Assembly (NCBI RefSeq): GCF_046119375.1
Contig: NW_027362765.1
Coordinates: 391,158,001-391,222,000, forward strand
From: Phyllobates terribilis
Taxonomy: Eukaryota
Reading direction: 5' to 3'
Length of the DNA stretch: 64,000 nucleotides
In this document: positions 5,808-29,410 of the stretch, one piece after another
How positions within the stretch are numbered: the first letter of the stretch is position 1
Layout of the letters: every line of letters begins with the position of its first letter
Notes under the pieces: generated by a model
Database searches by the model: none
What the model was told of the DNA's origin: nothing
Seen by the model: only the letters and a program-made list of their open reading frames with translations
Made by a program: the position numbers and the translations under genes

Positions 5808-5877
5808 TCGTGCCCGCAACCACCGGGTACTGCGTGCCTGAAAAGCAAAGACTGTTCAAACTTACCAGTGGTGAAGG

Positions 5878-6229: not shown

Positions 6230-7210
6230 ATGTCGGATACGGAGGAGAGCTTCACTGCCTCAACCCCCGCCAGCGCTACCGCTGCTGCAGTTATGCCCTT
6301 CACCATGCCCTATATCCCGGGAGCAGCTTGGCTACCCCAGTACTCAGGGGAGTCACATACCCTGCATGACTTTAGAGAAAAGCTGGATAGCCTCTTCCAG
6401 GTGTACCCCCTCACAGAAGAGCAAAAAGTGAGCATCCTGGTGGCCCAACTAACCGGGGCAGCCAAAAGGGAAGTAAAATCCTGGCCACCTGGGAGGAAGA
6501 CTGTCGCAGGGATACTAACCCGGCTGAAGGACACCTTTGATACCCGCACCTCAGCCGAGATTAAGCTTAGATTCTACGGGTGCAAGCAGCGAGCGCATGA
6601 GAGTATAAGGGACTATGCACTAAACCTACAAGAGGCCCTGAGGGCCATAAAGCAGACCGACCCTGATGGGGTGGGAAACGAGGACAGGCTGTTGACTGAA
6701 CAATTTATAGAGGGTTTATATTGCAATGCCCACCGAACCCAGTTGCGGGCAATGGCCTTACAGGATCCCCATCTGGACTTTGCACAGTTCAAGGACAGAG
6801 CCATCCGGGTGCTCCGAGAACCGGCACCAGGTGGCGTTGTGACCCACAGACGCCCCACTACCACTTACTACCAGGAGGCGGCGCCCTTGTCAGCAGGGCC
6901 TGTGGGAGCTGATGCGCAGGCTTTGGACAATGACCCGGCTCCAGACCTACACCATCAGGTCCAAGAGCTAGCTAAGAGCGTTGCTGCGCTAACCCGAACT
7001 GTGCAGTCTTTACAGGTTTCCACCCCAGGGAAGATCCAGCTGGCATCCGGACCGGAGGACATCCCGTGGCGTCGACCAAGGAGGACCCCACCGGCCAGAG
7101 GAAGACCCAGTGACCGATACAGTGAGGACGGACGACCCATCTGCCGCCGCTGCAATCAACCCGGACATATGGCAAGGTACTGTTCTTTAAACGGGCACAA
7201 CCTGAGGTAG
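6230..7210 (+). CDS. gag: Gag polyprotein (326 aa) with C-terminal CCHC zinc knuckle
   Basis: ATG-initiated ORF directly after the leader; CRRCNQPGHMARYC matches CX2CX4HX4C. Confidence 0.93.
   Translation: MSDTEESFTASTPASATAAAVMPFTMPYIPGAAWLPQYSGESHTLHDFREKLDSLFQVYPLTEEQKVSILVAQLTGAAKREVKSWPPGRKTVAGILTRLKDTFDTRTSAEIKLRFYGCKQRAHESIRDYALNLQEALRAIKQTDPDGVGNEDRLLTEQFIEGLYCNAHRTQLRAMALQDPHLDFAQFKDRAIRVLREPAPGGVVTHRRPTTTYYQEAAPLSAGPVGADAQALDNDPAPDLHHQVQELAKSVAALTRTVQSLQVSTPGKIQLASGPEDIPWRRPRRTPPARGRPSDRYSEDGRPICRRCNQPGHMARYCSLNGHNLR
7186..7192 (+). promoter_or_regulatory. -1 ribosomal frameshift slippery heptamer T TTA AAC
   Basis: X XXY YYZ in the gag frame (TTA AAC = L N). The -1 frame is open from 7186 into the protease ORF. 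Confidence 0.8.
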
Positions 7211-8187
7211 AGGGCCAACCCCCAGGAAAAAGATCACCAGGCCCATCGAACTGGCGCGACAGATATGTGGGAGGACGTCCAGTCTTGCCTGTGGTACTGG
7301 ATGGCATTCCCATGAGTGCCCTACTGGACACCGGGTCACAGGTCACCACCATCCCGTACGTGCTCTTCAAGCAGTACTGGAATGACTCGGATATTACCCG
7401 CTACCCCGACGACGACTTGAGTATCATCGCCAGCAATGGTCAGCCCGTGCCACAGATCGGATTTAAAGAGGTGACCATCAAAATTGGTAGAGTCGAACTG
7501 GCCGCACAGGGACTGATCATTGTAGATATCGATAAACATGAGAGTCACCCAAAAATAACTCTAGGAACTAATGTAATTGAAAATTGTCTTGCAGAGGTGA
7601 TTTTCCTTTTACAGCAGGTTGCCAAGAATGCCAGCTCCGGCGAGCAGCGGGTGCTCCAGAAAGAGATCCGGGCACTGATGCAACGGCAACAAGTGGAACT
7701 CTCCGGCGGTGAGATTGGTAGCGTAAGAATGTGTGACCCTTTTCCTATTGCCATGCCCCCAAAAAGTGAAATGATGATTTGGTGCCGGGCAGCTATTGGT
7801 CTGAGAGGTAGAGATTACCAGGCAATGGTAGAACCAGTTTACTCAGACAGTAGGCCCACCATTTTGACAGCACGGGGGGTGGTCAATGTACGCCATGGGA
7901 GGGTGCCCATTCGCATAATAAATATCGGGGAGAGGGAAGTGTACCTGCCCCGGTATGCCACGCTAGCCAAATTATATACCACTAATCAAAGTTCTATACA
8001 ATCTGTGGAACCCTTGCCTCCATCTCACCCGGAGGAAGGTAACAGCTCTAAGAAAGACATGGAGGACTGGTGTCAGCAACTACATTTGGGTACTGACTCC
8101 ACTCCCTCACATCAGAAACAAGGAGTCTATCGGGTGGTTCAAGAGTATGAGAGAGTGTTTAGTAAACACCCGTTAGACTTCGGGTGA
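7186..8187 (+). pseudogene. pol: Pol N-terminal part: aspartic protease plus linker, ended by a premature TGA
   Basis: ALLDTGSQVT protease motif. In-frame TGA at 8185-8187, after which the same frame continues (VKGVEHRIPTG...) into RT. Confidence 0.9.
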
Positions 8188-10518
8188 GTCAAGGGGGTAG
8201 AACATCGCATCCCCACGGGAGATCATCCTCCCATAAAAGAGAGGTATCGACCCGTACCCCCTGCACATTACCAACACGCCAAGGGGATGCTTAGAGATAT
8301 GAAGGAGGCTGGGGTAATCCGGGATAGTTGTAGCCCCTGGGCAGCCCCATTAGTTTTAGTCAAAAAGAAAGACAACACCATGAGGATGTGTGTAGATTAC
8401 CGGAAAATCAACCGTATCACACACAAGGATGCGTACCCCTTACCAAGGATAGAGGAGTCATTGGCTGCTTTAAGATCTGCTAACTTCTTCTCTACCTTGG
8501 ATCTCACTAGCGGGTACTGGCAGGTTCCTGTAGCAGAGGCGGACCGGGAGAAGACCGCATTCACCACCCCGATGGGACTTAGCGAGTTCACCTGCATGCC
8601 GTTCGGACTCTGCAACGCACCAGGAACCTTCCAACGCCTAATGGAGTGTTGTCTGGGCCACAGAAACTTCGAGACGGTCCTGTTGTACCTGGACGATGTC
8701 ATCGTATATTCCAAGACGTATGAGGACCACCTGAAACACCTGGCGGAAGTGTTCGAGGCTCTGGCGAGTTACGGCCTAAAGGTGAAACCCTCCAAGTGTC
8801 ACCTCCTGAAACCAAAGGTGCAGTACCTGGGACACGTGGTGAGCGCTGACGGAGTGGCTCCCGACCCCGATAAGATCACCGCAATTAAGGGATGGCCAAG
8901 CCCCTCCAGCGTAAAAGAAGTGCGGCAGTTCCTCGGGTTGGTAGGCTACTACCGAAGGTTTATTCCCGGTTTCACCAAAAAGGCAGCACCTATGCAGGAC
9001 CTCCTGATAGGCCAGTCCCGGAAGGCCAAGAACCAGAAGCCGCCCTTCAAATGGGAAGAGCTGGAAGAAGAGTCCTTCCGCCAGCTGAAGATGGCCCTCA
9101 CGGGGGACGAAATCCTGGCGTACCCGGATTATAGCCAGCCCTTTATCCTCTACACCGACGCCAGTAACATCGGGCTAGGAGCCGTACTGTCCCAGATCCA
9201 GCAGGGGAAGGAACGAGTAATCGCCTACGCCAGCCGAAAACTGCGACCCACCGAAAGGAACCCCGAGAATTACAGCTCATTTAAGTTAGAGTTCCTGGCC
9301 GTAGTATGGGCAATCACTGAGCGCTTTAAGCATTACCTCGCTTCTTCCCGGTTCACCGTGTACACGGATAACAACCCGCTGACACACCTGGACACGGCAA
9401 GACTCGGTGCCCTGGAGCAGAGGTGGATGGCCCGTCTGTCCAACTACGAGTTCACAATTAAATACCGGGCAGGACGCTCCAATACCAACGCGGACGCCCT
9501 GTCCAGGATGCCCAACCTGCCGGACGGAGGAGAAGATCCGGAGGGACTGGAAGAAGTTGAACTCCCTGCGTTCCACCGTCATGGGACTATTCAGTATTCC
9601 CACCGGGTAAGGAGTAAGCAGGCTGCTACGTTGAACCCCTTACCCCACTACAACTGGGCGGAAACGCAAGACAGCGACCCTGCCGTCCGACTGGTGAAGG
9701 AGATGCTGACTCGGCCGGAGGCTCGCCTTGAACCAGACGCTCCGGAGGAAGCCAAACAACTATGGGCAGAGAAGAGTCGACTGTTCCTTTACAAAGGGAA
9801 GTTGTGCCGCAGAATGGTTAACTCCCGGACGCATGAATTACTCTGGCAAGTAGTGGTGCCACGAAGAGACGCAGCCATGGTGATGGAGGCATACCACGAC
9901 GGAGCTGGACACTTTGGGTGGAAAAAGCTGGAGTTCCTGCTGCGCGAGCGGTTCCACTGGGTAGGCATGAGGGGAACCATCGAGAAGTGGTGCAGAGATT
10001 GTGGCCCGTGCAACCTGAGAAGGAAGGACCGAGCCAGCCAGAAGACTCCCCTGCAGTCCATCGTCACCCGGCAACCGTTGGAACTGGTAGCCTTGGATCA
10101 TGTAAAACTGACCCCAAGCAGAAGTGGCTACGTCTACGCGTTAACCATCGTGGATCATTACTCCCGGTTCTTGGTTGTCGTCCCCGTCAAGGACTTAACG
10201 GCTCAAACAGCAGCTAGAGCCTTCCAGCAGCACTTCTGCCTTCCACACGGGTACCCGGACCAAGTGCTGACGGACCAGGGACCTGCCTTTGAAGCGGAGG
10301 TCTTTCAGGAATTCTGCAATCTGTATGGCTGCCGGAAGATAAGGACGACACCCTACCATCCGCAGACTAATGGACTTTGTGAAAAAATGAACCAGGTGGT
10401 AATGGATCTTCTAAAAACGTTGCCCCTGGAAGAACGCAGTCTGTGGCCTGAAAAGTTGCCCGATCTGGTGGACCTATACAACCACATCCCGGTAGGTTCC
10501 ACCAACTGTACCCAATGA
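8188..10518 (+). pseudogene. pol: Pol RT-RNase H-integrase core
   Basis: RT motifs MCVDYRKIN, MPFGL, YLDD; RH motifs TDAS, TDNNPL, NADALSR; IN HHCC (HDGAGH...CGPC) and D(ALDHV), D(TDQG), E(LCEKMN). Ends at a frameshift near 10513. Confidence 0.95.
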
Positions 10519-11312
10519 GGGCAAGACCTGGTAAGTTACCTGTTGACCTGGAAATGGGAGTCCTGACCCCCGAGGACACTTCACCAGAAACAGACTGGGA
10601 CACAGAGAGGCAGCAGCAGTACCGGAGAGTACAGGAGAGCGTGGAGCGAAGTCTCTGTCAGGCTAGGGAAAGACAAGAGAAAACTTACAACCAGTATGCT
10701 CCCGCTGTTCCCCTGGTACCCGGAGAGCAGGTCTTGAAGAGGAAGAGACGGCTCCACAAGTTGGACGACCAGTGGGAGAAGGACCTGTACACCATACTGC
10801 CCTCAAGCCACGAGAACCCGAAGGTCTGTACCATCAGTAAAGACGGAGGGGAAACCACAGCCATTGTATCCCGGGACCACCTGAAGAAGTGTCCCGAACA
10901 ACTGAGGAACCCTGAAGAGGAACAAGAAGACCATCGACCCGTGGAAGAAAGGGAAGATATGGTTAGTACCGTGCTCGGGGACTTCCCTCAGTCTTGGACT
11001 CAAGTCAATGGTGCAGTTGTGGTACCCGTACTCACCTTCCTCCAACCATCATCCCAAGAACCTACGGAGCAACGGGTAGAGCTGGAAGAACAGCCGGTCC
11101 AGGAGGCAGAAGACTCCACACAAGCAGAACAGGAGAATCAACCCTCTGCTTATAGTGAGCCTGCCGTACCCCTAGTGAGACAAAGAGCCGGTAGACAGCT
11201 GCCCAGTTTACCCTTGACAGCTCCTACACCCTGTAGTTCAGGGCCAGACAGTCAGCTCCGTAGGTCCACTCGGGCCACTAGAGGCCAGTTACCCGCACGC
11301 TGGAGAATTTAA
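10515..11312 (+). pseudogene. pol: Integrase C-terminal continuation in a shifted frame (265 aa)
   Basis: MRARPGKLPVDL is the usual continuation after a (S/T)PxxL motif of Gypsy integrases; ends LRRSTRATRG..W. No chromodomain seen. Confidence 0.8.
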
Positions 11313-11661
11313 AGTGTATAAATTGTTTTATCTATGTTTTTCTGTGTCTTGTTGCTTGTGTATAATTTTGTGTTTCTAGTTATTTTTAGGAAACCTTGGT
11401 GGATTTACCGGGAATCCTTGTATATAGTTGGAGCGTAACCCAGGATGGACTAGAGACTGTTAAGGACTCGGGGTAGGACAGACCCCTACCTGGTTACGTC
11501 TCCCTGTGTTGGTGAAATGGACACCTTTGCTTTTCTTCAAAGACTGCATCCGGTTGCGGACACGCCGTAACCATCTTATGTGTTTTTCTTATAGTATTGT
11601 TATTGTTATACTTTGTTATGTTTTTCTAAATGTGTTTAGTCCCGGAGTACTAAATTTCACT

Positions 11662-11670
11662 AGGGGGGAA
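11662..11670 (+). promoter_or_regulatory. Polypurine tract
   Basis: AGGGGGGAA immediately before the 3' LTR TGTGAC. Confidence 0.85.
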
Positions 11671-12642
11671 TGTGACACCCCAGGGGTCTGGTTGCCACAG
11701 TGATAGAGATATTATGTCTGAGAGCAGGTGGGAGGTCCTTTGGTCAGGGATCCTGTGCATGCCACACCTCCTGCCCAGTCTTGGGAGGGGAAGAACTTCC
11801 CCTGTATAAACCCGGGGCTGAGGCAGGGTGAGTCAGACAAGGAGAGTGGAGAAGAGAAGCAGCATAGGAAACAGCAGAGTTACAAGGAGTCAGGGGCTGG
11901 CAGCTACAGAGCTCACCCTGACTAAGAAGATTCTTTACCGGACCCGGAGTCCGAGGCTGTGGGGACTAAATCCTCCCCAGCAGCAGAATCCGTCGGGCAG
12001 GGGATTTCAGGTCCTCTGGCCCAGAAGCCTGAAGGCACGGTCACACGCGTGGGACCAGCACCGCCATCGTGGAGCGGAAGCCATTAGAAGGCCCCGAGTC
12101 ACCGGCCATACGGGTGAGCACCACACGGTACACTCAGGGACGTGGGCTACTTACATCAGCTTCTAGCAAGGTAGCCAGAAGAGTACAGTCAGTTTGGGAG
12201 GCCTACAACTACGCCTGGCCAGGGGAGATCCCATCTGCTCAAAGACTGACCAGGCCCCGTTTGCTAGCAAGTACTCCGGGAGGGTCTGTCGTTGTTACCA
12301 GTAAAGACCCTGAACTACACCGTACCGTCTCTGAGTGGTTCCTGCTACCCCCATCATCCACGTCGGCTGCCCTGAGGCCATACCCCTCCCGTTGGGGGTT
12401 ATACTATCACGCTGCACAATCCTACCACCGGCCTCAGCGGTCTGCCCTGCAGCAGCAGCTTCCTGGCTGCACTCAACGGGTGGCGTAGTCATCAACTATT
12501 TACTACTAATAGACTGCCGTCTAGTTTGACTCCCTGGGCACGGACCGGGTCACCGCCACGAGATTACAACCCTCCACGGATCCGGCTCCGGGTAAGCTCC
12601 CGCGTGCGCACCGCAGCGCGACACAGGCCCAGGGGCGCGTCA
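11671..12642 (+). repeat. 3' LTR (972 bp)
   Basis: Copy of 4813-5784. Only two G>A differences noticed (GCTGCA/GCTACA, CTCGCC/CTCACC); other overlapping ORF translations are identical. Confidence 0.96.
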
Positions 12643-13840
12643 CATGCGCCCCACAATAATAGCGCATGCTGGGAGCAATATTCAAATACATGGGAGGAGT
12701 GACTGAATAGCAGGATCACACCCCTATGAGTGAAAATGAGCAGGTAGGACAAAGTGTATATAATGTAATAAAATTATTATAATACCACCGATTTTAATGA
12801 AAAAAGCTTGTTAGTGATGCACATTGCACATTGTATCACTAACAAAGCAATGGGGGCAGTGTAGATAGTAGATAGGACGTGACAGGTTCCCTTTAAAGCC
12901 AGAGATGTCAAATTCAAATACACAGAGGCCAAAGTTCAAAGCTTGGACAAAGTCGCCGACCAACCTTGATATTTATTAAAAAATATGTCTACAATTGAGG
13001 AAGTTTTTCTTTATCAAATATAACGATTCATTTAAAAATGATAGTGGAATATTATAATATGTTATGTAAAAGCAGTAAAAAGCACATGAACCAATGGCCT
13101 AATTTAAATATGTAATTTAACACAGGATAAAAATCCTTGAATGAAACAGATAATAATTAGTGTTGAGCGAGCACTAAAATGCTCGGGTGCTCGAAGCTCG
13201 GGCCGAGCTCGCCGTGATACTCGGGTGCTCGACCCAAGCAACGAGCTCAATTTTAGTCTATGGGAGACCCGAGCATTTTTGCGGCGGCACCCCCGGCAGT
13301 CTGTAGAAAGCTTAAAAAGTGCCCAAAACGATAGTGACAGTGCTCAAAAGACATGGGGGCAGCATGGGGATCGCCCCAGGAAGCATTTCTGACCCCCAGG
13401 TCACTGCTGTCAACAACGTGGTCAGAGGTATTAAGCCACTTTTACAGGCTCACAATAAAACGTTCAAAAACGAAAGTGAAACTTTTTTCCTGTGAAATAT
13501 GTTAAGGAACTTCCTTTCCAGGGTAAAGACTTGTGTATAAGTTAAAATAAATGACCAAAAACAAAAATACTCCTCCACACCTTCGGCTATGTTCACAAGT
13601 AGCATTTTTTATGCGTTTTTGCACTTTTGTATTGCTTTCAACTATGACAAATGCATTCACCGTGAAATGTCATTTTAACATTTTACAACCTTATCTGGCC
13701 ATGTGCTGTGTGACACATACATAAAGTGCTGAAAAGACAAGGGAACAGCATGGGGAAGACCCCTGGAAGCATCTCTGACTCCCAGGTCACTGTCTAAAAG
13801 TGTGCCCATCATAAGTGATCCTTACCGCATCAGAAGATGC

Positions 13841-15208
13841 AGACTTGCAACTATCCCCATGCAAGTTCTAGTCCCAGGGCAGTGTTCAATTGTACCTCCC
13901 CCATTCCTTGCAATACAAGCGCAAGTATGCAGCCTGCCACCCACCCACCCCCAGGCTGCAATACCATACTGCTTGCTTGCTTGAACTTGAAATTGGGCCT
14001 TTTAGGCATTTGGAGGCGGAATCTGGCCACCACATCATGGCTGTGTTGGCGGCCTGGAATCCATACTCAGTCCCCAGCCGCCCGGCGGCCGGGTGTCCAT
14101 ACTCGGTCCCCAGCCGCCCCGTGGCCGGGTGTCCACACACGGTCCCCAGCCGCCTGGGGGCAGCCGGGTGTCCATAAACGGTCCCCAGCCGCCCCTATTT
14201 CTCCTTGGAACATCCCCCCACACACTTTTCTTAGCCCGGCCTGCTTTAGGCAGCATTGGACGAGCCCACCAGAGAACTAGACTCCTCCAGTGAGCCCTGA
14301 CTTCTCCATCGGTGGAGTTGAGAGTGCCAAGGTGAGGAGCATGATGATGATGACAGAAGTTAGCATCTGCTATGTTTTCTTTTAATGCAAGTGTAAGTGT
14401 GCAGCCTGCCACCCACCCACCCCCAGACTGCAATTCTATACTGCTAGCTTGCACTTGAAATGGGGCCTTTTAGTTTGGAGGAGGCCGAAGCTGGCCACTA
14501 CCTCATGGCTGCTTCGGCAGCGAGGTATCCATACTCAGTCCCCAGCCGCACATATTTGTCCTGGTGTGCCTTATACATAAGATTAAGCGCGTATACCAAA
14601 ACATTACCTGTGCCCTCCCCAGTGCATTTAGTGGGAAGGAGAGCCTATTCCGCTGTAGTGTGTGCATGCCAAACCCCTGTTCATGGTACATGCGAAGATG
14701 CCTCCCACCTTGCACCTGTCGTTGCAGACTTGCAACTATCCCCATTCAAGTCCTTGTCCCAGGGCAGTGTTTAATTGTACCTCTCCCATTCCTTGCAATG
14801 CAAGCGCAAGTATGCAGCCTGCCACCCACCCACCCCCAGGCTGCAATACCATACTGCTTGCTTGCTTGCACTTTAAATTGGGCCTTTTAGGCATGTGGAG
14901 GCGGAATCTGGCCACCACGCCATGGCTGTGTCGGCGGCCTGGTATCCATACTCAGTCCCCAGCCGCCTGGTGGCCGGGTGTCCCCGCTTGCTCCCCAGCC
15001 TCCAGGGGGTGGCCGGGTGTCCATACTCGGTCCCCAGCCACCCCTATTTGTCCCGGTAACCTTTCCCACACTTTTCTTAGCCTGGCCTGCTTTAGGGCAG
15101 CATTGGCCGAGCCCACCGGACTATCAGACTCCTCCGGTGGGCCCTGGCTTCTTCATCAGGGGAGTTGAGAGTGCCAAGGTGAGGAGCATGATGAGGATGA
15201 TAGAAGTT
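13841..15208. repeat. Imperfect duplicated blocks inside the hAT (copies at ~13841-14375 and ~14724-15208, partial at ~14385-14550) with short CCATACTC(A/G)GTCCCCAGCC repeats
   Basis: CAGACTTGCAACTATCCCC...GCAGCCTGCCACCCACCC...GAGAGTGCCAAGGTGAGGAGCATGATGA occurs twice; parallel ORFs 13837 and 14662. Confidence 0.8.
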
Positions 15209-15718
15209 AGCAACTGCTTTGTTTTGTTGTAATGCAAGCGCATGTATGTAGTAGCGACTAGGCCTGAGGTGGTCAGCGTTTTGGCGCATATCCTACCTCC
15301 TCCGAGGATTGCTGGATGTTTTCCTGCTACTATCCAAGTTCTATGACTCCCGTTAAAACAAAGCTTCAGGTGATAAATGATGGATGAGGTAGTGGCAAAG
15401 GAGAAAGAGCAGGAGGAACAGGGACCATTCACATCAATATCAGGCCAGTCAACCAGATATGTCTTGTAGGATATGTTTCTGTAACAAAAGGAGCGGTTCG
15501 GCTACACAGTTATAGGGCATACAGTGAGTGCAATGCCTACCAAAAATTTCGAGCCACTCCAATGCCCCTTGGAAATGACATGGAGGTCAGAGTGCGTTAA
15601 CTAAACCTTTTTTTTCCATTTATAGCAACTGGGTCTCCCGTGCACTGTTGGCCTAAGCAGTGAATGGAAGGCTTTCCAAAAATTATGAGGAACTGCAATG
15701 CCCCTTACAAGAGCCATG

Positions 15719-16738
15719 TGTGGCACCCCAGGGGTCTGGTCACCACAGTAATAGAGATATTACGTCGGAGAGCAAGTGGGAGGTTTCCTGGTCAGGATCC
15801 CTTAAACATGCAACATCCTCCTGCCCCAATCCTGGGAGGGGAGAATTCTGCCCTTATAAACTGGATCTGGGGCGGGGTTGAGTGAGTCAGAGAACAGTCA
15901 GAGTCAGAGTGAGAGCAAGGGAAAGTAACAGCAAGGAGCTCTGTAGGAGCTAGGAGCTAAAGACCAGGGGCTGGAAGCTGAGCAGAGCTCGCCCTGGCAG
16001 AAGACAATAGGAACCGGACACAGGAGTCCGAAGCTGTGAGGACTTATATATCCAGCAGCAGAAACCAGCCGGCAGGGGATTTCAGGTCCTCTGGCCATAG
16101 AAGCCCGGAGGCTCAGTCACAAGCAAGGGACCAGCACCTCCGTCGTGGAGCGGAGGCTAACAGAAGGCCCCAAGTCACCAGCCATACGGGTGAGCACTAC
16201 ACGGTACACTCGGGGACGTGGGCTACTTCTACCCGCTTACAGCAAGGTAGCCAGGAAGAGTGCAGACAGACGGGGAGGCCTACAACTCCACCTGGCCAGG
16301 GGAACTCCTGCTTGCTCACAGACTGACCAGGCCTCTTATGCTAGCCAGTACTCCCGGGAGGGTCTACCTTATAATCATCAGTAAAGACCCTGAACTGCAC
16401 TGCAAAGACTCTGAGTCATTCCTGCTGCGCTCGTGCACCATCACCCCCATCATCCACACTCACTGCCCTGAGGCTATATTCCTCCCGAGGGGAGTTATCC
16501 CATTCTATGCTGCGCACACAACACCAGCCTCAGCGGTCTGCCTCGCAGCGGTGGTACTCCCTGACCGCAATCCACGGGTGGCGCAGTCGGACAATTAACC
16601 TCAAAGCCTAAGAAAGACTGCCACTGGTTTGACCAGCCTGAGCCACGGGACCGGGTCACCGCCACGGAGCCTACAGACCCCAGAGACCCGGCACCGGGTA
16701 TCCCACACACGTGTACACACGGCCCAGGGGGCGCGTCA
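15719..16738 (+). mobile_element. Solo LTR (1020 bp), diverged relative of the 4813-12642 LTR family
   Basis: TGTGGCACCCCAGGGGTCTGG...GGGGCGCGTCA, TSD CATG (15715-15718 and 16739-16742); collinear similarity to 4813-5784; no internal domain. Confidence 0.92.
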
Positions 16739-17922
16739 CATGCAGTACAGCATATTACAAACATAAGTCCCATTATTGGGGAGTGGGTGTCCCATGGTAT
16801 TTGCTTATGCTTTCCAAGCAAAAGCTGCCAAAAATTAGGACGGAGCAACTTGCAATGCCCCTTACAAGAGCCATGCAGTACAGCATATTACAAACATAAG
16901 TCCCATTATTGGGGAGTGGGTCTCCCATAGTATTTGCTTATGCTTTCCAAGCAAAAGCTGCCAAAAATTAGGACGGAGCAACTTGCAATGCCCCTTACAA
17001 GAGCCATGCAGTACAGCATATTACAAACATAAGTCCCATTATTGGGGAGTGGGTGTCCCATAGTATTTGCTTATGCTTTCCCAGCAAAAGCTGCCAAAAA
17101 TTAGGACGGAGCAACTTGCAATGCCCCTTACAAGAGCCATGCAGTACAGCATATTACAAACATAAGTCCCATTATTGGGGAGTGGGTGTCCCATAGTATT
17201 TGCTTATGCTTTCCAAGCAAAAGCTGCCAAAAATTAGGACGGAGCAACTTGCAATTCCCCTTACAAGAGCCATGCAGTACAGCATATTGCAAACATAAGT
17301 CCCATTATTGGGGAGTGGGTGTCCCATAGTATTTGCTTATGCTTTCCCAGCAAAAGCTGCCAAAAATTAGGACGGAGCAACTTGCAATGCCCCTTACAAG
17401 AGCCATGCAGTACAGCATATTACAAACATAAGTCCCATTATTGGGGAGTGGGTGTCCCATAGTATTTGCTTATGCTTTCCCAGCAAAAGCTGCCAAAAAT
17501 TAGGACGGAGCAACTTGCAATGCCCCTTACAAGAGCCATGCAGTACAGCATATTACAAACATAAGTCCCATTATTGGGGAGTGGGTGTCCCATAGTATTT
17601 GCTTATGCTTTCCCAGCAAAAGCTGCCAAAAATTAGGACGGAGCAACTTGCAATGCCCCTTACAAGAGCCATGCAGTACAGCATATTACAAACATAAGTC
17701 CCATTATTGGGGAGTGGGTGTCCCATAGTATTTGCTTATGCTTTCCCAGCAAAAGCTGCCAAAAATTAGGACGGAGCAACTTGCAATTCCCCTTACAAGA
17801 GCCATGCAGTACAGCATATTGCAAACATAAGTCCCATTATTGGGGAGTGGGTGTCCCATAGTATTTGCTTATGCCTTGCAAGCAAAAGCTGCCAAAAATA
17901 AGGATGGAGGAACTTGCAATGC
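16739..17922. repeat. 133-bp tandem array, ~9 copies
   Basis: CATGCAGTACAG at 16739, 16872, 17005, 17138, 17271, 17404, 17537, 17670 and 17803. Confidence 0.96.
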
Positions 17923-18067
17923 TGGCACCCTGGTGGTATAGTGGTGGTGGAGGCTGAGGATAAGGAGAAGAAGATTAAACAGCCGAAACGAGGAAGTGTA
18001 TACCCATGTGTGGGTGTGAAGCGGTGCATGTGAATACACCTCCCGAAATAACACAGTGGATTTGACT

Positions 18068-21000
18068 TTATGTTACTCTGCTGTCATTTGGTGGTGATGA
18101 GAAGTCTGGCCCAATCCAGCCCTTGTTCATTTTGATAAGGGTCAGCTTGTCAGCATTGTCAGTTGACAGGCGAGTGCGCTTATCAGTTATAATTCCCCCA
18201 GCGGCACTAAAAACACGCTCCGATAACACGCTAGCGGCAGGGCAGGCCAGGACCTCCAAGGCGTACAGAGCAAGTTCATTCCAAGTGTCCAGCTTGGATA
18301 CCCAATAATTAAAAGGCACAGAGGAATCACGGAGGACGCTGGTACGATCGGCAAGGTACTCCCTCACCATCTTTTGAAACTTTCCACTCCTTGTGAGAGT
18401 ACCCCGCGCCTCAGGGCCTGTAAGCTGGGCGGGTGTCAGAAAACTGTCCCAGAACGTTGACAGTGTTCCCCTGCCTCTGCTGGATTGGAGTTGCATCTCT
18501 CTCGCCTGTACGCCTTGGTTGGGCAACGAACTGTGACCTCTGCCGCTAGCGTGTTCAGATGGGAATTTTTTTAAGAGTTCTGCAGCAAGGGCCTTCTGGT
18601 ATTGCCCCATTTTTGTAGACCTCTCCACCTCAGGAATAAGAGAGTGAAAGTTCTCCTTGTAGCGGGGGTCTACAAGTGTCACCAACCAGTAATGACTGTC
18701 ACCCAACATTTTGACAACGCGAGGGTCACGGTTAAGGCAGCGTAACATAAAGTCAGCCATGCGTGCCAGACTGGTAACGGGCAAGATTTCCGTGTCCTCA
18801 CCAAGATGACGACTGACCATGCTCTCCTCCTCCTCCTCCTCTTCCTCCTCCCCCCTGTCCTCAGGCCACCTACGCTGAACCGACGGTATGACACTTGTAC
18901 AGGTACTACCGTCTACAACGCATGATAGCAGCTCCTGTTCTTCCTCCTCCTCCTCCTCCTCCTCCTCTCCCTCATTATCCCCCAATGCATGTTGGGATGA
19001 GATGAGGCTGGGCTGTGTGTAATCACCCGCTACGGCTTCTTGATCCATCTCATCATACTCTGGCTGCAATGGCTCCTCTTTAATTCTCTGCAGAGAGCGT
19101 TGCAAAAGACAGACAAGTGGGATGCTGACACTAATGATGGCGTCATCGCCACTCACCATCTTGGTGGCCTCCTCAAAGTTTGTCAGGATGGTACATATGT
19201 CAGACATCCAGGTCCACTCCTGAGGTCTTATGTGTGGAGTCTGACCTGAATATCGACGGCCTTGTTGCAGCTGGTACTCCACAACTGCTCTCTTCTGCTC
19301 ACAAATCCTTTGCAACATGTGGAGGGTAGAGTTCCAACGTGTGGGGACATCACACACCAGTCGGTGTGCCGGAAGCTGCAAACGCTGCTGCAACACAGCA
19401 AGGGCGGCGTAAGCTGTAACCGTCTTGCGAAAATGCGCTGACTGGCGGCGTACTTTCACGAGCAGATCTGGCAACTCGGGGTACGATTTAAGAAACCGCT
19501 GAACCACGAGGTTAAGCACATGAGCCAGGCATGGTACGTGTGTGATCTCACCTCGCCTCAGAGCCGCCACCAGGTTACGGTCATTGTCACACACGACCAT
19601 GCCGGGATGTAGGTTCAGCGTTCTCAGCCACAGATCTGCCTGCTCTTTCACAGCTGTCCACAATTCACAAGCAGTGTGAGGTTTATCACCTAAGCTTATG
19701 AGTTTCAGCACAGCCTGTTGCCGCTTGGCGGAGGCAGTACTGCAATGCTTCCAGCTTGTAACTGATGTAATATCTGAGATGGAGGCTGAACATGAGGAGG
19801 AGGAGGAGGATGCGCAGGAGCTGTACACTGTGGGGGCAACTCTGACTGACATAGGGCCCGCAATCCTCGGTGTGGGGAGGATGTGTTCCGTCCCAAGGTC
19901 CGACTGGGTCCCGGCTTCCACTATGTTTACCCAGTGCGCCGTCAGAGAGATGTACCGTCCCTGGCCACAAGCACTTGTCCACGTGTCCGTTGTCAGGTGG
20001 ACTCTCCCAGTAACTGCGTTGTTGAGGGCACGGCAGATGCTTTGGGACATGTGCTTGTGTAGTGCGGGGATGGCACACCGGGCAAAATAGTGTCGGCTGG
20101 GGACCGAGTACCGAGGGACGGCCACCGCCATAAGATTGCGGAAGGATTCCGTCTCCACCAGCCTAAAAGGCAGCATTTCCAACGCAAGCAGTCGTGAAAT
20201 GTGCGAATTTAGGACTGTGGCCTGTGGGGCGTTAGCTGCGAATTTCCGCTTTCGTTCAAAGGTCTGGGATATGGACAATTGAACGCTGCGGTGGGACGTG
20301 GACGTGGACGTTGATGCTGTTTCTTGAGAAACTGCCTTAACAAGTGAAGACTGAGAGGAGGGGGCATCTTTACATGCAGTATGGACAGGGGATTGCCTTG
20401 CACACACAACAGGGGGTTCTATTGCACGCACAACAGTGGAAGAAGCAGTGGTGACACCCGCTGACACTGGTCGTGGACCCTGGGTTTCGCCCCACAAAGT
20501 CGGGTGCTTTGCTGCCATGTGCCTGATCATGCTGGTGGTGGTCAGGCTGGTAGTTTTGTCACCCCTGCTGATGCTGGCATGGCAGGTGGAACATATGGCC
20601 TTTTTGGGGTTATCAGCAGAGTCTTTAAAAAAATTCCAGACTCTGGAAGACCTACCTCTTGTACTGGCAACGTCCCTCGTGTTGGTGTTACGGGGAACGG
20701 TTGCCTGCCTTCTGTCTGCGGCCACCACACTGCTTCTTCCTGCCTGTTGGGGTACTCTGCCTCCCTCCCCCTGTGTGCTGCTGGCCTCAGTCTGCATGTC
20801 CTCCTTCCACTTTGGGTCAGTTACTAGATCATCCACCACCTCCTCCTCTTCCACTTGCGCACCACGATCCTCCTCCTCACTTCTTGGCAATTGTGTCTCG
20901 TCATCGTCCACCTCTTGTGACAGATTGCCAACGTCGACTTCCTGTGGCCGTGGCTGTTCAAATATTTGGGCATCGCAACATGGGATCTCCTCTTCCACCA

Positions 21001-21154
21001 CTTCAAGCGTATCAGGCGAGGGGCCCAAATATGGAAATGGACCAGTGAACAGCTCTTCAGAGTCCAAGTGTGGGATCACTTGCTGTCTGACGACACTCGG
21101 CATGGTGGGAGGAAGGAGAATCAGGGTGAGGAGGAGTATGCGGTCGAGACTCAC
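18068..21154 (-). CDS. hAT (ZBED-like) transposase, 1028-codon open frame; first ATG at 21103
   Basis: BED finger (VWNFF..CSTC..HMAAKH), LTTDTWT (D), VCDNDRN (D), CLAH (CxxH), TRWNST, and C-terminal dimerisation region CPAASVLSERVFS (E). Confidence 0.92.
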   Translation of the reverse strand: MSLDRILLLTLILLPPTMPSVVRQQVIPHLDSEELFTGPFPYLGPSPDTLEVVEEEIPCCDAQIFEQPRPQEVDVGNLSQEVDDDETQLPRSEEEDRGAQVEEEEVVDDLVTDPKWKEDMQTEASSTQGEGGRVPQQAGRSSVVAADRRQATVPRNTNTRDVASTRGRSSRVWNFFKDSADNPKKAICSTCHASISRGDKTTSLTTTSMIRHMAAKHPTLWGETQGPRPVSAGVTTASSTVVRAIEPPVVCARQSPVHTACKDAPSSQSSLVKAVSQETASTSTSTSHRSVQLSISQTFERKRKFAANAPQATVLNSHISRLLALEMLPFRLVETESFRNLMAVAVPRYSVPSRHYFARCAIPALHKHMSQSICRALNNAVTGRVHLTTDTWTSACGQGRYISLTAHWVNIVEAGTQSDLGTEHILPTPRIAGPMSVRVAPTVYSSCASSSSSSCSASISDITSVTSWKHCSTASAKRQQAVLKLISLGDKPHTACELWTAVKEQADLWLRTLNLHPGMVVCDNDRNLVAALRRGEITHVPCLAHVLNLVVQRFLKSYPELPDLLVKVRRQSAHFRKTVTAYAALAVLQQRLQLPAHRLVCDVPTRWNSTLHMLQRICEQKRAVVEYQLQQGRRYSGQTPHIRPQEWTWMSDICTILTNFEEATKMVSGDDAIISVSIPLVCLLQRSLQRIKEEPLQPEYDEMDQEAVAGDYTQPSLISSQHALGDNEGEEEEEEEEEEQELLSCVVDGSTCTSVIPSVQRRWPEDRGEEEEEEEEESMVSRHLGEDTEILPVTSLARMADFMLRCLNRDPRVVKMLGDSHYWLVTLVDPRYKENFHSLIPEVERSTKMGQYQKALAAELLKKFPSEHASGRGHSSLPNQGVQAREMQLQSSRGRGTLSTFWDSFLTPAQLTGPEARGTLTRSGKFQKMVREYLADRTSVLRDSSVPFNYWVSKLDTWNELALYALEVLACPAASVLSERVFSAAGGIITDKRTRLSTDNADKLTLIKMNKGWIGPDFSSPPNDSRVT

Positions 21155-21431
21155 GGCTACTAAGAGTTGACCGTGTGAAAGACAGACCGGAGGTGGTGGT
21201 GCCCAGGTAACTGGAAGTATTATCTGCTATCCAATTAATAACCTGTTCACACTGATCAGTTCTCAATACTGGTGTTGTTCTGTGCTTCCCTAGTAATTCG
21301 GTCAAGAAGTGGGAGCGAGAAGATGTGGCTGTTGGTTGTGGCACATTTTCACCTAGGCCACGGCCCCGTCCTCTGCACGAACCATCACCAGAACGTCCAC
21401 TTCCACGTCCCTTGCCACGCGCCTTGCCCAT
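21057..21431 (-). pseudogene. Probable true N-terminus of the hAT transposase, out of frame with the main ORF
   Basis: ATG-initiated MGKARGKGRG.. RG-rich ORF overlaps the start of the main ORF by ~100 nt in another frame. Confidence 0.65.
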
Positions 21432-21512
21432 TGTAAATGAAGTAAAATAGCTTACACTTACACTATCAATGGAAAAAGGGTAATAAAGAGTAGATTAGAA
21501 CCGTGGAAGAGG

Positions 21513-24500
21513 AAAACCACAGTTATTGTTTACTGGGGTATACCACACTTTTTTAAATAGAGAAATTGGCGGGTGAACAGTGAGCGACACACTCAAACTG
21601 CTTTTTTTTTAGATACCAAAGGCCCAAAACTGGATAGTACAGCGATTTGACCCGTGGAACTGCGAAACCACACTGGGATGTCGGGCCTACACAAGACTAT
21701 TTTCAACAGATATATTTTTGTGTCACAACAGTCAGGAGACACTACTGTTTTTCTTTACGGAAAAAACTACCAAAACCTGAATAATAGAGATTTTTTACCG
21801 TGGGATGGCAAAACCACAGTTATTGTATACTGGGGTATACCACACTTTTTTAAATAGAGATATTTGCGGCTGAACAGTGAGCGACACACTCAGACTGCTT
21901 TTTTTTTTAGATACCAAAGGCCCAAAGCTGGATAGTACAGCGATTTGACCCGTGGAACTGCGAAACCACACTGGGATGTCGGGCCTACACAAGACTATTT
22001 TCAACAGATATATTTTTGTGTCACAACAGTCAGGAGACACTACTGTTTTTCTTTACGGAAAAAACTACCAAAACCTGAATAATAGAGATTTTTTACCGTG
22101 GGATGGCAAAACCACAGTTATTGTTTACTGGGGTATACCACACTTTTTAAATAGAGATATTTGCGGCTGAACAGTGAGCGACACACTCAAACTGCTTTTT
22201 TTTTTAGATACCAAAGGCCCAAAACTGGATAGTACAGCGATTTGACCCGTGGAACTGCGAAACCACACTGGGATGTCGGGCCTACACAAGACTATTTTCA
22301 ACAGATATATTTTTGTGTCACAACAGTCAGGAGACTCTACTGTTTTTCTTTACGGAAAAAACTACCAAAACCTGAATAATAGAGATTTTTTACCATGGGA
22401 TGGCAAAACCACAATTATTGTTTACTGGGGTATACCACACTTTTTTAAATAGAGATATTTGCGGCTGAACAGTGAGCGACACACTCAAACTGCTTTTTTT
22501 TTAGATACTAAAGGCCCAAAACTGGATAGTACAGCGATTTGACCCGTGGAACTGCGAAACCACACTGGGATGTCGGGCCTACACAAGACTATTTTCAACA
22601 GATATATTTTTGTGTCACAACAGTCAGGAGACACTACTGTTTTTCTTTACGGAAAAAACTACCAAAAGCTGAATAATAGAGATTTTTTACCGTGGGATGG
22701 CAAAACCACAGTTATTGTTTACTGGGGTATACCACACTTTTTTAAATAGAGATATTTGCGGCTGAACAGTGAGCGACACACTCAAACTGCTTTTTTTTTT
22801 AGATACCAAAGGCCCAAAACTGGATAGTACAGCGATTTGACCCGTCGAACTGCGAAACCACACTGGGATGTCGGGCCTACACAAGACTATTTTCAACAGA
22901 TATATTTTTGTGTCACAACAGTCAGGAGACATTACTGTTTTTCTTTACGGAAAAAACTACCAAAACCTGAATAATAGTAATTTTTTACCGTGGGATGGCA
23001 AAACCACAGTTATTGTTTACTGGGGTATACCACACTTTTTTAAATAGAGATATTTGCGGCTGAACAGTGAGCGACACACTCAAACTGCTTTTTTTTTAGA
23101 TACCAAAGGCCCAAAACTGGATAGTACAGCAATTTGACCCGTGGAACTGCGAAACCACACTGGGATGTCGGGCCTACACAAGACTATTTTCAACAGATAT
23201 ATTTTTGTGTCACAACAGTCAGGAGACACTACTGTTTTTCTTTACGGAAAAAACTACCAAAACCTGAATAATAGAGATTTTTTACCGTGGGATGGCAAAA
23301 CCACAGTTATTGTTTACTGGGGTATACCACACTTTTTTAAATAGAGATATCTGCGGCTGAACAATGAGCGACACACTCAAACTGCTTTTTTTTTAGATAC
23401 CAAAGGCCCAAAACTGGATAGTACAGCGATTTGACCCGTGGAACTGCGAAACCACACTGGGATGTCGGGCCTACACAAGACTATTTTCAACAGATATATT
23501 TTTGTGTCACAACAGTCAGGAGACACTACTGTTTTTCTTTACGGAAAAAACTACCAAAAGCTGAATAATAGAGATTTTTTACCGTGGGATGTCAAAACCA
23601 CAGTTATTGTTTACTGGGGTATACCACACTTTTTAAATAGAGATATTTGCGGCTGAACAGTGAGCGACACACTCAAACTGCTTTTTTTTTAGATACCAAA
23701 GGCCCAAAACTGGATAGTACAGCGATTTGACCCGTGGAACTGCGAAACCACACTGGGATGTCGGGCCTACACAAGACTATTTTCAACAGATATATTTTTG
23801 TGTCACAACAGTCAGGAGACTCTACTGTTTTTCTTTACGGAAAAAACTACCAAAACCTGAATAATAGAGATTTTTTACCATGGGATGGCAAAACCACAAT
23901 TATTGTTTACTGGGGCATACCACACTTTTTTAAATAGAGATATTTGCGGCTGAACAGTGAGCGACACACTCAAACTGCTTTTTTTTTAGATACTAAAGGC
24001 CCAAAACTGGATAGTACAGCGATTTGACCCGTGGAACTGCGAAACCACACTGGGATGTCGGGCCTACACAAGACTATTTTCAACAGATATATTTTTGTGT
24101 TACAACAGTCAGGAGACACTACTGTTTTTCTTTACGGAAAAAACTACCAAAAGCTGAATAATAGAGATTTTTTACCGTGGGATGGCAAAACCACAGTTAT
24201 TGTTTACTGGGGTATACCACACTTTTTTAAATAGAGATATTTGCGGCTGAACAGTGAGCGACACACTCAAACTGCTTTTTTTTTTAGATACCAAAGGCCC
24301 AAAACTGGATAGTACAGCGATTTGACCCGTCGAACTGCGAAACCACACTGGGATGTCGGGCCTACACAAGACTATTTTCAACAGATATATTTTTGTGTCA
24401 CAACAGTCAGGAGACATTACTGTTTTTCTTTACGGAAAAAACTACCAAAACCTGAATAATAGTAATTTTTTACCGTGGGATGGCAAAACCACAGTTATTG

Positions 24501-25520
24501 TTTACTGGGGTATACCACACTTTTTTAAATAGAGATATTTGCGGCTGAACAGTGATCGACACACTCAAACTGCTTTTTTTTTAGATACCAAAGGCCCAAA
24601 ACTGGATAGTACAGCCCTTTGACCCATGGAACTGCGAAACCACACTGGGATGTCGGGCGTACACAAGACTATTTTCAACAGATATATTTTTGTGTCACAA
24701 CAGTCAGGAGACACTACTGTTTTTCTTTTCGGAAAAAACTACCAAAACCTGAATAATAGAGATTTTTTACCGTGGGATGGCAAAACCACAGTTATTGTTT
24801 ACTGGGGTATACCACACTTTTTTAAATAGAGATATTTGCGGCTGAACAGTGAGCGACACACTCAGACTGCTTTTTTTTTAGATACCAAAGGCCCAAAACT
24901 GGATAGTACAGCGATTTGACCCGTGGAACTGCGAAACCACACTGGGATGTCGGGCCTACACAAGACTATTTTCAACAGATATATTTTTGTGTCACAACAG
25001 TCAGGAGACACTACTGTTTTTCTTTACGGAAAAAACTACCAAAACCTGAATAATAGAGATTTTTTACCGTGGGATAGCAAAACCACAGTTATTGTTTACT
25101 GGGGTATACCACACTTTTTTAAATAGAGATATTTGTGGCTGAACAGTGAGCGACACACTCAAACTGCTTTTTTTTTAGATACCAAAGGCCCAAAACTGGA
25201 TAGTACAGCGATTTGACTCGTCAAACTGCGAAACCACACTGGGATGTCGGGCCTACACAAGACTATTTTCAACAGATATATTTTTGTGTCACAACAGTCA
25301 GGAGACACTACTGTTTTTCTTTACGGAAAAAACTACCACAACCTGAATAATAGAGATTTTTTACCGTGGGATGGCAAAACCACAGTTATTGTTTACTGGG
25401 GTATACCACACTTTTTTAAATAGAGATATTTGCGGCTGAACAGTGAGCGACACACTCAAACTGTTTTTTTTTTTAGATACAAATGGCCCAAAATGGATAA
25501 TACAGAGGTTTGAACCGTGG
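21513..25520. repeat. 297-298-bp tandem array, ~13.5 copies
   Basis: Identical ORF starts at 21654, 21952, 22249, 22546, 23141, 23438, 23734, 24031, 24626 and 24923. Confidence 0.97.
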
Positions 25521-25980
25521 AAGTGCAAAACTACACTTCTGTTTCTCTAGCCTACACCAGACTATTTTCAACAGTTATATTTGTGTCTGAAAAATCAGAG
25601 ACACGCTTTTTTTTTGGGGGGGGGGGGGGGACACACCAAAAGGTTAATAAGACGGGTATTTGTACAGTGTGAAGGAGGAAAAAAGAAGGAGGATTTAGAT
25701 GAAAAAAAAAGGATTTTTCTTGGCCCCTGACACCTGGTGCTAAGTCCAGCAATTTCAGCAACAGGAGCACAGAGGACTGTAAGCAGCGTTTGCTGGTATA
25801 ACCACTGTGTCTCCTATACAGCCTGCCTGCCTGGTATCTGGGATGGATATTAGTCCTGAAAGGGACTGTTTGTTTGTTCTGGCAGCCTTTACAGACCCTA
25901 CACTAACTATTTCGCAGTTTATATCTCTCCCTAAATCAGCAGCGCTGTCCCTACACTGTCTAATCCGGAGCGACTGTGTC

Positions 25981-26160
25981 CAAGATGGCGGCGCCCCGTT
26001 TTAAATACTCGAGGTGATGCTGTGCGGCCAGCCAATCACTGTAATGCCCACAACCAACATGGCTGCAGCATTACAGTGACAGGCTGGCAATCCCTGCATG
26101 TTCATTGGCTCTGTAAAGAGCGCCAAACATGCAGGGCGGAGACCCGAGCTCCCGCCCGAG
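25981..26160 (-). promoter_or_regulatory. Candidate inward-facing Pol II promoter at the hAT right end
   Basis: On the minus strand: GGGCGGGA, CCAAT (26108-26104), ATTGG (26036-26032), TATTTAAAA (26007-25999), then YY1-type GCCGCCATCTTG (25992-25981). Confidence 0.5.
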
Positions 26161-26329
26161 TAACCCGGAAATGCTCGGTGCTCGCCGAACATCTCGAGTA
26201 GCGTGATGCTCGGGCGAGTACCGAGCAGTGTCGAGCATGTTCGCTCACCACTAATAATAATGTATAATGCAAACAAAAGTGCCTCCAAACACAGTATGAT
26301 ACCCCCACAGTGAATTCCTCCGCATTAGC

Positions 26330-29300
26330 CTCCACATGCACAGTATAATGACCCTACTGTCCCCCACCTCAACTCCCAAGGCAAAGTATGGTGACTCCAT
26401 CACAGGATGATTCCCCAACTGTGACCTCCACACAGCCCTCCATACAGTATAATGGCCATAAAAAGTCTATAATGGCCTCACATAGTTCTCCATACAGTAT
26501 AATGGCCTCACATAGTCCTCCATACAGAATAATGGGTCCACATAGCCCTCCATACAGTATAATGGCCTCACATAGTCCTCCATACAGTATAATGGCCTCA
26601 CATAGTCCTGCATACAGAATAATGGCCCCACATAGTCCTCCACACAGTATAATGGCCCCACATAGTCCTCCATACAGTATAATGGTTTTACATAGTCCTC
26701 CATACAGTATAATGGGCCCCACATAATCCTCCATACAGAATAATGGACCCACATAGTCCTCCATACAGTATAATGGCCCCACATAGTCCTCCATACTGTA
26801 TAATGGCTCCACATAGTCCTCCATTCATAATATTGGGCCCCTCATAGTCCTCCATACAGTATAATGGCCCCACATGGTCCTCCATACAGTATAATGGCCA
26901 CAAAGAGTCCTCCATACAGAATAATGGTCCCCACATAGTCCTCCATACAGTATAATGGCCTCACATAGTCCCCCATACAGTATAATAGCCACGTAGTCCT
27001 CCATACAGAATAATGGCCCCACATAATCCTCCATACAGAATAATGGGCCCACATAGCCCTCCATACAGAATAATGGGCCCCACATAGTCCTTCATACAGT
27101 AAAATAGGCCCCACATAATCTTCCATACATTATAATGGTCCCACATAGTTCTCCATACTGTATAATGGGCACCACATGGTCCTCCATACAGGATAATGGC
27201 CCCACATAGTCCTCCATACAGTATAATGGCCCCACATAGTGCTCCATACAGTATAATGGCCCCACATAATCCTCCATACAGTATAATGGCCCCACATAGT
27301 TCTCCATACAGTATAATGGCCTCACATAGTTTTCCATACAGTATAATGGGTATAATGGTCCCATATAGTCCTCCATATAGTATAATGGCCCCACATAGTT
27401 CTTCATACAGTATAATGGCCTCACATAGTTCTCCATACAGTATAATGGCCCCATATAGTCCTCCATACAGTATAATGGTCCCACATAATCCTCCATACAG
27501 TATAATGGGCTCCACATAGTCCTCCATAGAGTAAAATGGCCCCACGTAGTCCTCCATACAGTATAATGGGCCCCACATAGTCCTCCATAGAGTATAATGG
27601 CCCCCACATAGTGTTCCATACAGTATAATGGCCCCACATTGTCCTACATACAGTATAATAGGTCCCACATAGTCCTCCATACAGTATAATGGGCCCCACA
27701 TAGTCCTCCATACAGTATAATGGGCCCCACATAGTCCGCCATACACTATAATGGGCCCCACATAGTCCTCCATACAGTATAATGGCCCCACATAATCCTC
27801 CATACAGTATAATGGCCCCACATAGTGCTCCATACAGTATAATGGCCCCACATAGTCCTCCATACAGTATAATAGGTCCCACATAGTCCTCCATACAGTA
27901 TAATTGGCCCCACATAGTCCTCCATACAGTATAATGGGCCCCACATAGTCCTCCATACAGTATAATGGGCCCCACATAGTCCTCCATACAGTATAATGAC
28001 CCCACATAATCCTCCATACAGTATAATGGCCCCACATAGTCCTCCATGCAGTATAATGGTCTCACATAGTCCTCCATACAGTATATTAGCCACATAGTCC
28101 GCCACGCAGAATAATGGCCCCACATAATCCTCCATACAGAATAATGGGCCCACATAGCCCTCCATACAGAATAATGGGCCCCACACAGTCCTTCATGCAG
28201 TAAAATGGGCCCCACATAGTCTTCCATACAGTATAATGGCCCCACATAGTCCTCCATACAGTATAATGGGCTCCACATAGTCCTCCATACAGTATAATGG
28301 GCCCCACATAGTCCTCCATACAGTATAATGGGCCCCACATAGTCCTCCATACAGTATAATGGGCCCCACATAGCCCTCCATACAGAATAATGGGCCTCAC
28401 ATAGTCCTTCATACAGTAAAATGGGCCCCACATAATCTTCCATACATTATAATGGTCCCACATAGTTCTCCATACAGTATAATGGCCCCACATAGTTCTC
28501 CATACAGTATAATGGCCTCACATAGTTTTCAATACAGTATAATGGGTATAATGGTCCCATATAGTCCTCCATACAGTATAATGGCCCCACATAGTCCTCC
28601 ATACAGTATAATGGCCCTACATAATCCTCCATATAGTATAATGGCCCCACATAGTTCTTCATACAGTATAATGGCCTCACATAGTTCTCCATACAGTATA
28701 ATGGCCCCATATAGTCCTCCATACAGTAGAATGGCCCCACATAATCCTCCATACAGTATAATGGGCTCCACAAAGTCCTCCATAGAGTAAAATGGCCCCA
28801 CGTAGTCCTCCATACAGTATAATGAGCCCTACATAGTCCTCCATACAGTATAATGGCCCCACATTGTCCTCCATACAGTATAATAGGTCCCACATAGTCC
28901 TCCATACAGTATAATGGTCCCACATAGTCCTCCATACAGTATAATGGGCACCACATAGTCCTCCATACAGTATAATGGCCCCACATAGACCTCCATACAC
29001 TGTAATGGGCCCCACATAGTCCTCCATGCAGTATAATGGCCCCACATAATCCTCCATACAGTATAATGGCCCCACATAGTGCTCCATACAGTATAATGGC
29101 CCCACATAGTCCTCCATACAGTATAATAGGTCCCACATAGTCCTCCATACAGTATAATGGGTCCCACATAGTCCTAAATACAGTATAATGGCTCCACATA
29201 GTCCTCCATACAGTATAATGACCCCACATAGTCCTCCATACAGTATAATGGCTCCACATAGTCCTCCATACAGTATAATGGACCCACATAGTCCTCCATA

Positions 29301-29410
29301 CAGTATACATGGCCCCACATGGTGCTCCACAATGTATACATGGCTCCACATGGTGCTCCACACTGTATACATGGCCCCACATGGTTCTCCTCACAGTATA
29401 ATGGCCCCAG
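26330..29410. repeat. 32-33-bp minisatellite, roughly 90 copies
   Basis: Unit CCCCACATAGTCCTCCATACAGTATAATG(G)G; produces the dense cluster of artefactual repetitive ORFs. Confidence 0.96.

Follow-up and report, generated by a model that had tools for sequence, protein, structure and literature searches.

Tandem repeats carried by a young hAT transposon family in Phyllobates terribilis and their probable growth into giant arrays

Autonomous hAT transposons such as Ac and Hermes are typically a few kilobases (kb) long. We analyzed a 64,000-bp stretch of Phyllobates terribilis DNA (NW_027362765.1:391,158,001-391,222,000, assembly GCF_046119375.1; hereafter the window, with positions counted from its start) that holds a hAT element of 13,096 bp (13158-26253), in which a tandem array lies on either side of the transposase gene. 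This element has in common with the hAT superfamily, as represented by Hermes, a BED finger, a dimerization domain, short terminal inverted repeats (TIRs) and an 8-bp target site duplication (TSD), and differs from it in length and in cargo. The 1723 element of Xenopus laevis, which Kay and Dawid are said to have described in 1983, is reportedly a 6-10-kb interspersed element with thousands of copies, 8-bp flanking repeats and an expandable internal tandem region; it is not known to have giant or escaped arrays. A preliminary description of the window had set this length against that of typical autonomous hATs. The length itself stands, but long cargo-laden hATs have a precedent in hobo_AC of Anolis carolinensis, a young 9-15-kb family (PMC3014272). 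hobo_AC likewise carries fixed fragments of other elements and its copies recombine with one another, whereas it has 290 copies, compared to thousands here, and satellites go unmentioned in its main text (0 occurrences).

Three described elements come close in their tandem repeats. miDNA4 of Xenopus tropicalis (Scalvenzi and Pollet 2014, via PMC9659126, PMC12054243 and PMC12628747) is a miniature inverted-repeat transposable element (MITE) with TIRs and an internal tandem unit; as here, the internal copy number varies, and in the model put forward for it long arrays lose their ends and become free satellite. However, miDNA4 is a 300-600-bp non-coding Tc1/mariner MITE whose repeat is said to be captured, whereas the present family is a 9-13-kb transposase-coding hAT with two array slots, apparently home-grown units and giant copies that keep both TIRs and a TSD around them. 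Tetris / TIR-220 of Drosophila virilis (PMC4079207) resembles our hAT in that repeats already part of the element are amplified inside it; it is a non-autonomous foldback element with the repeats in its TIRs and assembly arrays of up to 66 copies, whereas the hAT reaches ~870 copies while both of its ends stay intact. In another frog, Rana temporaria, FEDoR (PMC12054243) is likewise dispersed and has TIRs, a TSD and tandem motifs inside, but it is ~3.5 kb long, with no open reading frame (ORF) and no superfamily assigned in that text. The present family has the features expected of a satellite seeded by a transposable element, namely a unit in dispersed copies at variable number and long derived arrays, some of them without ends, but its carrier encodes a transposase and is neither a MITE nor a foldback element. 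Our literature search, which had subscription journals and supplements outside its reach, turned up no description of a hAT that encodes a transposase and has TSD-closed arrays of >100 kb. That a repeat borne by an element can become satellite was already known; what is new is a complete series, closed by TSDs, in a family that codes for its transposase.

A hAT family with two array slots

The window element has 13-bp TIRs (one mismatch) at both termini, 13158 and 26253, and is flanked on either side by the 8-bp ATAATAAT, a TSD of low complexity that is weak when taken alone. The analysis, with Tandem Repeats Finder (TRF) for the arrays, bore out each structural part of the preliminary description: a TIR pair with a perfect 8-bp TSD, a 297-bp array of ~13.5 copies 5′ and a 133-bp array of ~9 copies 3′ of a transposase gene that lies on the minus strand, duplicated GC-rich blocks and a solo long terminal repeat (LTR) (Table 1).

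These parts are not peculiar to the window. Searches with the 5′ end and with the start of the transposase gave 2,337 and 2,324 candidates, of which 40 were scored in each, and the 297-bp unit occupied the same slot at 60 of the 60 loci returned (the window and one other element each appearing twice); other members might have lacked the arrays, as had been allowed for at the outset, but those returned do not. Among 13 other copies with both ends fetched, the TSDs mostly differ: 8 are perfect (7 distinct, two loci being duplicates), 2 are near-perfect (7/8 and 6/8) and 3 were composites, two of which were later resolved. Monomer copy number also varies between elements, as the 133-bp array has 1.9-18.8 copies in other members, and the GC-rich block is found in one, two or more copies. 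Since copy numbers vary and TSDs differ, the seeds travel with the transposon. The 297-bp array, the 133-bp array, the GC-rich duplication and the solo LTR are family-wide parts, and pieces of the family, including the LTR and both units, occur at 96-99% identity in sequencing runs under three organism labels.

The family is large. A 28-nucleotide sequence that joins the 3′ region to the LTR occurs 6,008 times without mismatch across the 10.57-Gb genome (controls, 0) and is exact in 16 of 20 position-ordered copies, from which we estimate roughly 7,000 copies, haplotigs included. Monomers, counted as exact motif matches genome-wide (controls again gave 0), number 50,074 for the 133-bp and 98,478 for the 297-bp motif. 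The 133-bp arrays adjoin hAT parts in 20 of 20 cases (the first 20 of 23 listed on C1; contig labels C1, C2, C3, C4, C5 and C18 and locus labels such as L012 are our own), with 2.8-18.8 copies, and 16 of 20 listed 297-bp arrays were seen to adjoin hAT parts, the other 4, unfetched, lying 5-11 kb from a junction match. Only 58 matches to the 297-bp motif lie in the first 44.9 Mb ahead of one giant array, which extrapolates to ~14,000 genome-wide compared to the 98,478 counted; thus, by our estimate, ~80-85% of the matches lie in large arrays. With exact-match rates of 0.56 and 0.79, the 297-bp total is estimated at ~50 Mb. For the 133-bp unit, ~84,000 monomers are estimated, whereas a mean of 7.3 per copy, as in the sample, would give ~51,000; no giant 133-bp array occurred among the sampled loci, though these counts suggest a tail, and larger 133-bp arrays may exist.

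Two further arrangements were noted among family members. In a composite subfamily, a young element is nested at one site in the transposase of an older LTR-less sister, and the sister 3′ arm and the whole young element move together (L261+L111, C1:10643362-10657241; L262+L110; L033; L124), with outer TSDs that match in 2 of 2 traced copies. A several-kb insertion with decayed hAT and LTR fragments recurs in L140, L154, L168/L188, L176, L181, L187 and L193.

Giant copies and their likely growth in place

All six large copies that we traced to both TIRs have a matching 8-bp TSD (Table 1). Every one has the same order of 5′ end, array, transposase, 133-bp array, LTR (partly deleted in one) and 3′ end, and the 268-kb copy retains an open ORF of 1,121 amino acids (aa). 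The giant arrays, which hold other insertions, were sampled in 10-kb pieces rather than tiled (~71 of 260 kb in the largest), and all pieces lay on one strand. For two further large copies (arrays of ~44 and ~34 kb), 5′ end and transposase were seen and the 3′ TIR was not recovered. Another 3′ end, 835 kb away from the C1 giant and at first a candidate for its missing terminus, belongs to a separate element.

The arrays differ in ways that point to growth where they now stand. In 8 of 9 large arrays we found private variants at a frequency of at least 15% (up to 38%) that are below 0.5-1% elsewhere, such as 90T>G (0.38 in one giant, 0.001 elsewhere); the ninth had no private variant at 15%. 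Moreover, each large array has its own best block lag, for instance 23, 25 or 28 monomers at 0.4-0.6% divergence, and the window array contains a 5-monomer duplication (lag 5) with 0-2 differences. These private variants and array-specific block duplications argue for growth in place. Thus, the two alternatives raised earlier, a family that mobilizes satellite seeds and arrays that grew after insertion, both found support, the former in arrays at 60 loci and in monomer haplotypes common to unlinked copies.

We therefore consider it very probable that a young hAT family spreads seeds and that the 297-bp seed then grows in place, one case becoming free satellite. In this scheme, thousands of sites have received the solo LTR and both seeds, of 297 and 133 bp, from a young cut-and-paste hAT, and there the 297-bp seed would grow by duplication of multi-monomer blocks, presumably through unequal exchange or replication template switching. 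Some copies reach hundreds of kb and would then be dead ends for transposition, and one case likely shed its transposon ends.

Growth may leave a further trace. Eight of the 9 large arrays are more diverged (0.9-2.0% at non-CpG sites) than small arrays (0.63%), with monomers up to three times as diverged at the same family age, although the transposase of the largest giant is only 0.95% diverged. One possible reading is that expansion is mutagenic.

Origin of the arrays and alternative explanations

Two 149-bp units make up the 297-bp unit as a dimer, with halves that are 71% alike (score 123, compared to a shuffle maximum of 65). A sister subfamily has a 448-bp trimer in the same slot, and older relatives (transposase identity 93% and 82%) have homologous 150-bp units there (80-82% and 61% identity). 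In the 3′ slot, relatives carry 52-bp or 130-bp units; homology of the 133-bp unit to the 52-bp unit is not clear (scores 38-52 vs. a shuffle mean of 52 in a comparable test) and to the 130-bp unit is borderline (72 vs. a shuffle maximum of 70). Judging from such sequence comparisons, the hAT-borne units are probably home-grown rather than captured. We also note that an LTR-less sister hAT at C3:753557255-753614600 (L157, L156, L207, L155) has a 52-bp array spanning ~57 kb (three samples) and itself sits within the 3′ arm of a large copy that bears the 297-bp array.

The 297-bp unit contains no ATG on its sense strand, compared to 4.45 in dinucleotide shuffles, and the 448-bp unit has 1 compared to 8.74 expected, whereas the 133-bp unit is not depleted (5 vs. 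3.73). Together with the predicted promoter-like motifs upstream (Table 1), this depletion suggests that the 297-bp array likely lies in the 5′ untranslated region (UTR). An early idea that the array is an intron was set aside for the UTR reading; contigs from sequencing runs contained no splice joint across the array. The array would then be a passenger that the element tolerates, and selection in the transposing lineage would have kept upstream ATGs out of it.

Several observations weigh against insertion of short seeds followed by growth and escape. Small copies that are unlinked have some variant monomer haplotypes in common, which means that the parents that jumped already differed in their short arrays; some growth apparently preceded jumping, and small-array sizes are to that extent inherited, while the complete small arrays sampled are biased to short ones. 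The giant lengths rest on one assembly and sampled arrays, with other insertions within. Among 27 array loci, 19 have at least one hAT end and 3, on C18, have none (4 were unresolved and 1 was unfetched). On this 23-Mb contig, 297-bp arrays lie near 8.1, 11.6-11.86 and 14.87-15.28 Mb, the last spanning 408,581 bp; no hAT end was found at them, although only three of six outer ends were seen, and the ends of a founder hAT were not found either.

We considered that the hAT might have picked up its repeat from a satellite already present in the genome, namely the C18 blocks, by capture of the kind suggested for miDNA4. Indeed, free arrays of up to 409 kb lie there among 36-bp and 49-bp satellites, the three array ends seen adjoin one or the other of these, and two share the same junction. 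However, variants common to all C18 arrays have frequencies of 0.000-0.007 among 1,118 other monomers (0.000 for 253C and 123G), and at four of the variant sites the state that prevails among hAT-borne monomers is also that of 12 of 12 outgroup 448-bp units. Thus, the C18 arrays are derived, and likely descend from one hAT-borne founder, spread by large duplications. Given this, and the homologous units in the same slot of older relatives, capture appears very unlikely; the concern that monomers might occur outside hAT copies is partly borne out by these end-less arrays, but not as a sign of a separate origin. The C18 region itself (L209-L216, L229, L244-L248), rich in 36-bp and 49-bp satellites interleaved with end-less 297-bp blocks, is possibly a centromeric or heterochromatic domain.

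That the giants transposed whole, with 20-260 kb of satellite inside, would fit their intact ends and TSDs and the open ORF of the 268-kb copy, but no two giants share private variants, block periodicity differs from giant to giant, and cut-and-paste efficiency falls as element length rises, so we find this highly improbable. We give just as little credence to the giant arrays being assembly artefacts: their lengths come from a single assembly, but 190 of 219 sampled monomers of the largest are distinct, the arrays are interrupted by other insertions, one of them with an 8-bp duplication of its own, the two TSD copies agree even over a distance of 268 kb, and the head-to-tail 297-bp joint appears in an independent run, as do the 133-bp unit and LTR pieces in runs of three studies. 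A selected function of the arrays for the transposon (as enhancer, nucleosome-phasing 149-bp unit or spacer) is compatible with growth in place and draws on the retention of both slots across relatives while the units turn over (297, 448 and 150 bp; 133, 52 and 130 bp) and on the avoidance of upstream ATGs. Copy number, however, ranges from <2 to ~870, units are replaced between close subfamilies, and ATG avoidance denotes a constraint on the UTR rather than a benefit from the repeat; we regard such a function as unlikely, if less so than the other alternatives. Seeding by the hAT followed by growth in place thus remains our preferred explanation.

Transposase, solo LTR and a proposed life cycle of the family

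The window transposase matches zf-BED (E = 1.4e-8) and Dimer_Tnp_hAT (E = 2.8e-10) in a domain search of the minus strand, and its best solved relative is Hermes (E = 9e-13). Short TIRs with an 8-bp TSD, a BED finger and a C-terminal dimerization domain place the element in the hAT superfamily; DDE, CxxH and W motifs were read in its sequence by eye. The coding sequence begins with the ATG at 21431, but its frame is lost at a 2-bp deletion near 21063, which the preliminary description had missed, and so the window copy lacks a full-length protein and the open ORF of an autonomous element. In contrast, the ORF is open in 7 of 31 young copies, encoding ~1,120 aa, and such copies probably mobilized the family in the recent past. 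Among young copies, the transposase diverges by 1.13% from the majority sequence in a star-like manner (750 singleton sites), which at a rate borrowed from Xenopus (PMC9250109) gives a rough family age of ~3.5-4 million years. AATAAA is absent on the 3′ side of the stop codon, and ATTAAA occurs there just twice, at a long distance. The subterminal repeats beside the 3′ TIR probably bind transposase, as in known hATs.

Table 1. Features of the window element (window positions) and large copies closed by both ends (contig positions)
Feature	Position	Strand	Details
Left TSD copy	13150..13157		8 bp; ends comparison
3′ TIR	13158..13170	-	13 bp, then short subterminal repeats up to ~13248
GC-rich internal duplication	13827..15251		includes 36-39-bp minisatellite; 83-91%
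Degenerate 133-like units	15522..15718		left of LTR
Solo LTR, Gypsy-type	15719..16738	+	TG..CA ends; 4-bp CATG duplication
133-bp array	16739..17922		x 8.9, 98% (TRF); 3′ of transposase
hAT transposase gene	18068..21431	-	frameshifted in window copy
297-bp array	21513..25582		x 13.7, 96% (TRF); 5′ of ATG; includes 5-monomer block duplication
Predicted promoter	25980..26108	-	CCAAT-like boxes
YY1-like motif	25980-25992	-	within predicted promoter
TATA-like box	26000-26007	-	within predicted promoter
5′ TIR	26241..26253	-	13 bp
Right TSD copy	26254..26261		8 bp
Giant	C2:660934066-661201980		267,915 bp; array span 260 kb
Giant	C1:44874942-45037774		162,833 bp; array span 155 kb
Giant	C5:568471037-568615951		144,915 bp; array span 126 kb
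Giant	C4:426606503-426714034		107,532 bp; array span 99 kb
Giant	C4:644455029-644513000		57,972 bp; array span 36 kb
Giant	C2:513525508-513554600		29,093 bp; array span 20 kb

The junctions of the LTR are identical in 29 of 29 copies that have it whole, and an LTR-less sister element shows the empty site. Thus, a single insertion brought in the LTR, all further copies of which arose as the DNA transposon spread, and in the window it is a fixed family part rather than a later local insertion. It is 74-75% like the LTRs of a Gypsy-type element at 4811-12644 of the window, which encodes protease, reverse transcriptase, RNase H and integrase (PR-RT-RH-IN) in a pol split over several frames and has LTRs 99.8% identical and a CATG duplication. 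In L012, the same LTR group sits at the CATG of a 133-bp unit, which suggests a target preference. A single solo LTR multiplied several thousand-fold without retrotransposition would mislead LTR-based dating.

Further tandem arrays lie elsewhere in the window: a 33/99-bp unit x 258 at 52463-61282, 30-bp x 96 at 26468-29409, beginning 215 bp from the 5′ TIR, and 43-bp x 27 at 3021-4190.

On a broader reading, toward which we lean with some reserve, one burst of a transposase-coding hAT planted thousands of satellite seeds of the same age, and the genome would hold their whole life cycle: a 2-copy seed, the 14-copy window array, TSD-closed giants of up to 268 kb and end-less blocks in a satellite domain, ~50 Mb in all. 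The transposases of the giants would serve as internal clocks, and the two slots would be a lineage-long satellite factory with units turning over. The passage from transposon to long satellite has mostly been argued from end points, whereas here intermediates are still bracketed by ends and TSD, which fix the start state and the date of each array. The model of satellite birth within an element thus becomes directly testable in a replicated, dated system; if the reading is true, growth rates, block-repeat formation and excess mutation would be measurable in many replicates through the giants' transposase clocks. By way of a passenger repeat, a DNA transposon can enlarge a 10.57-Gb genome by tens of Mb.

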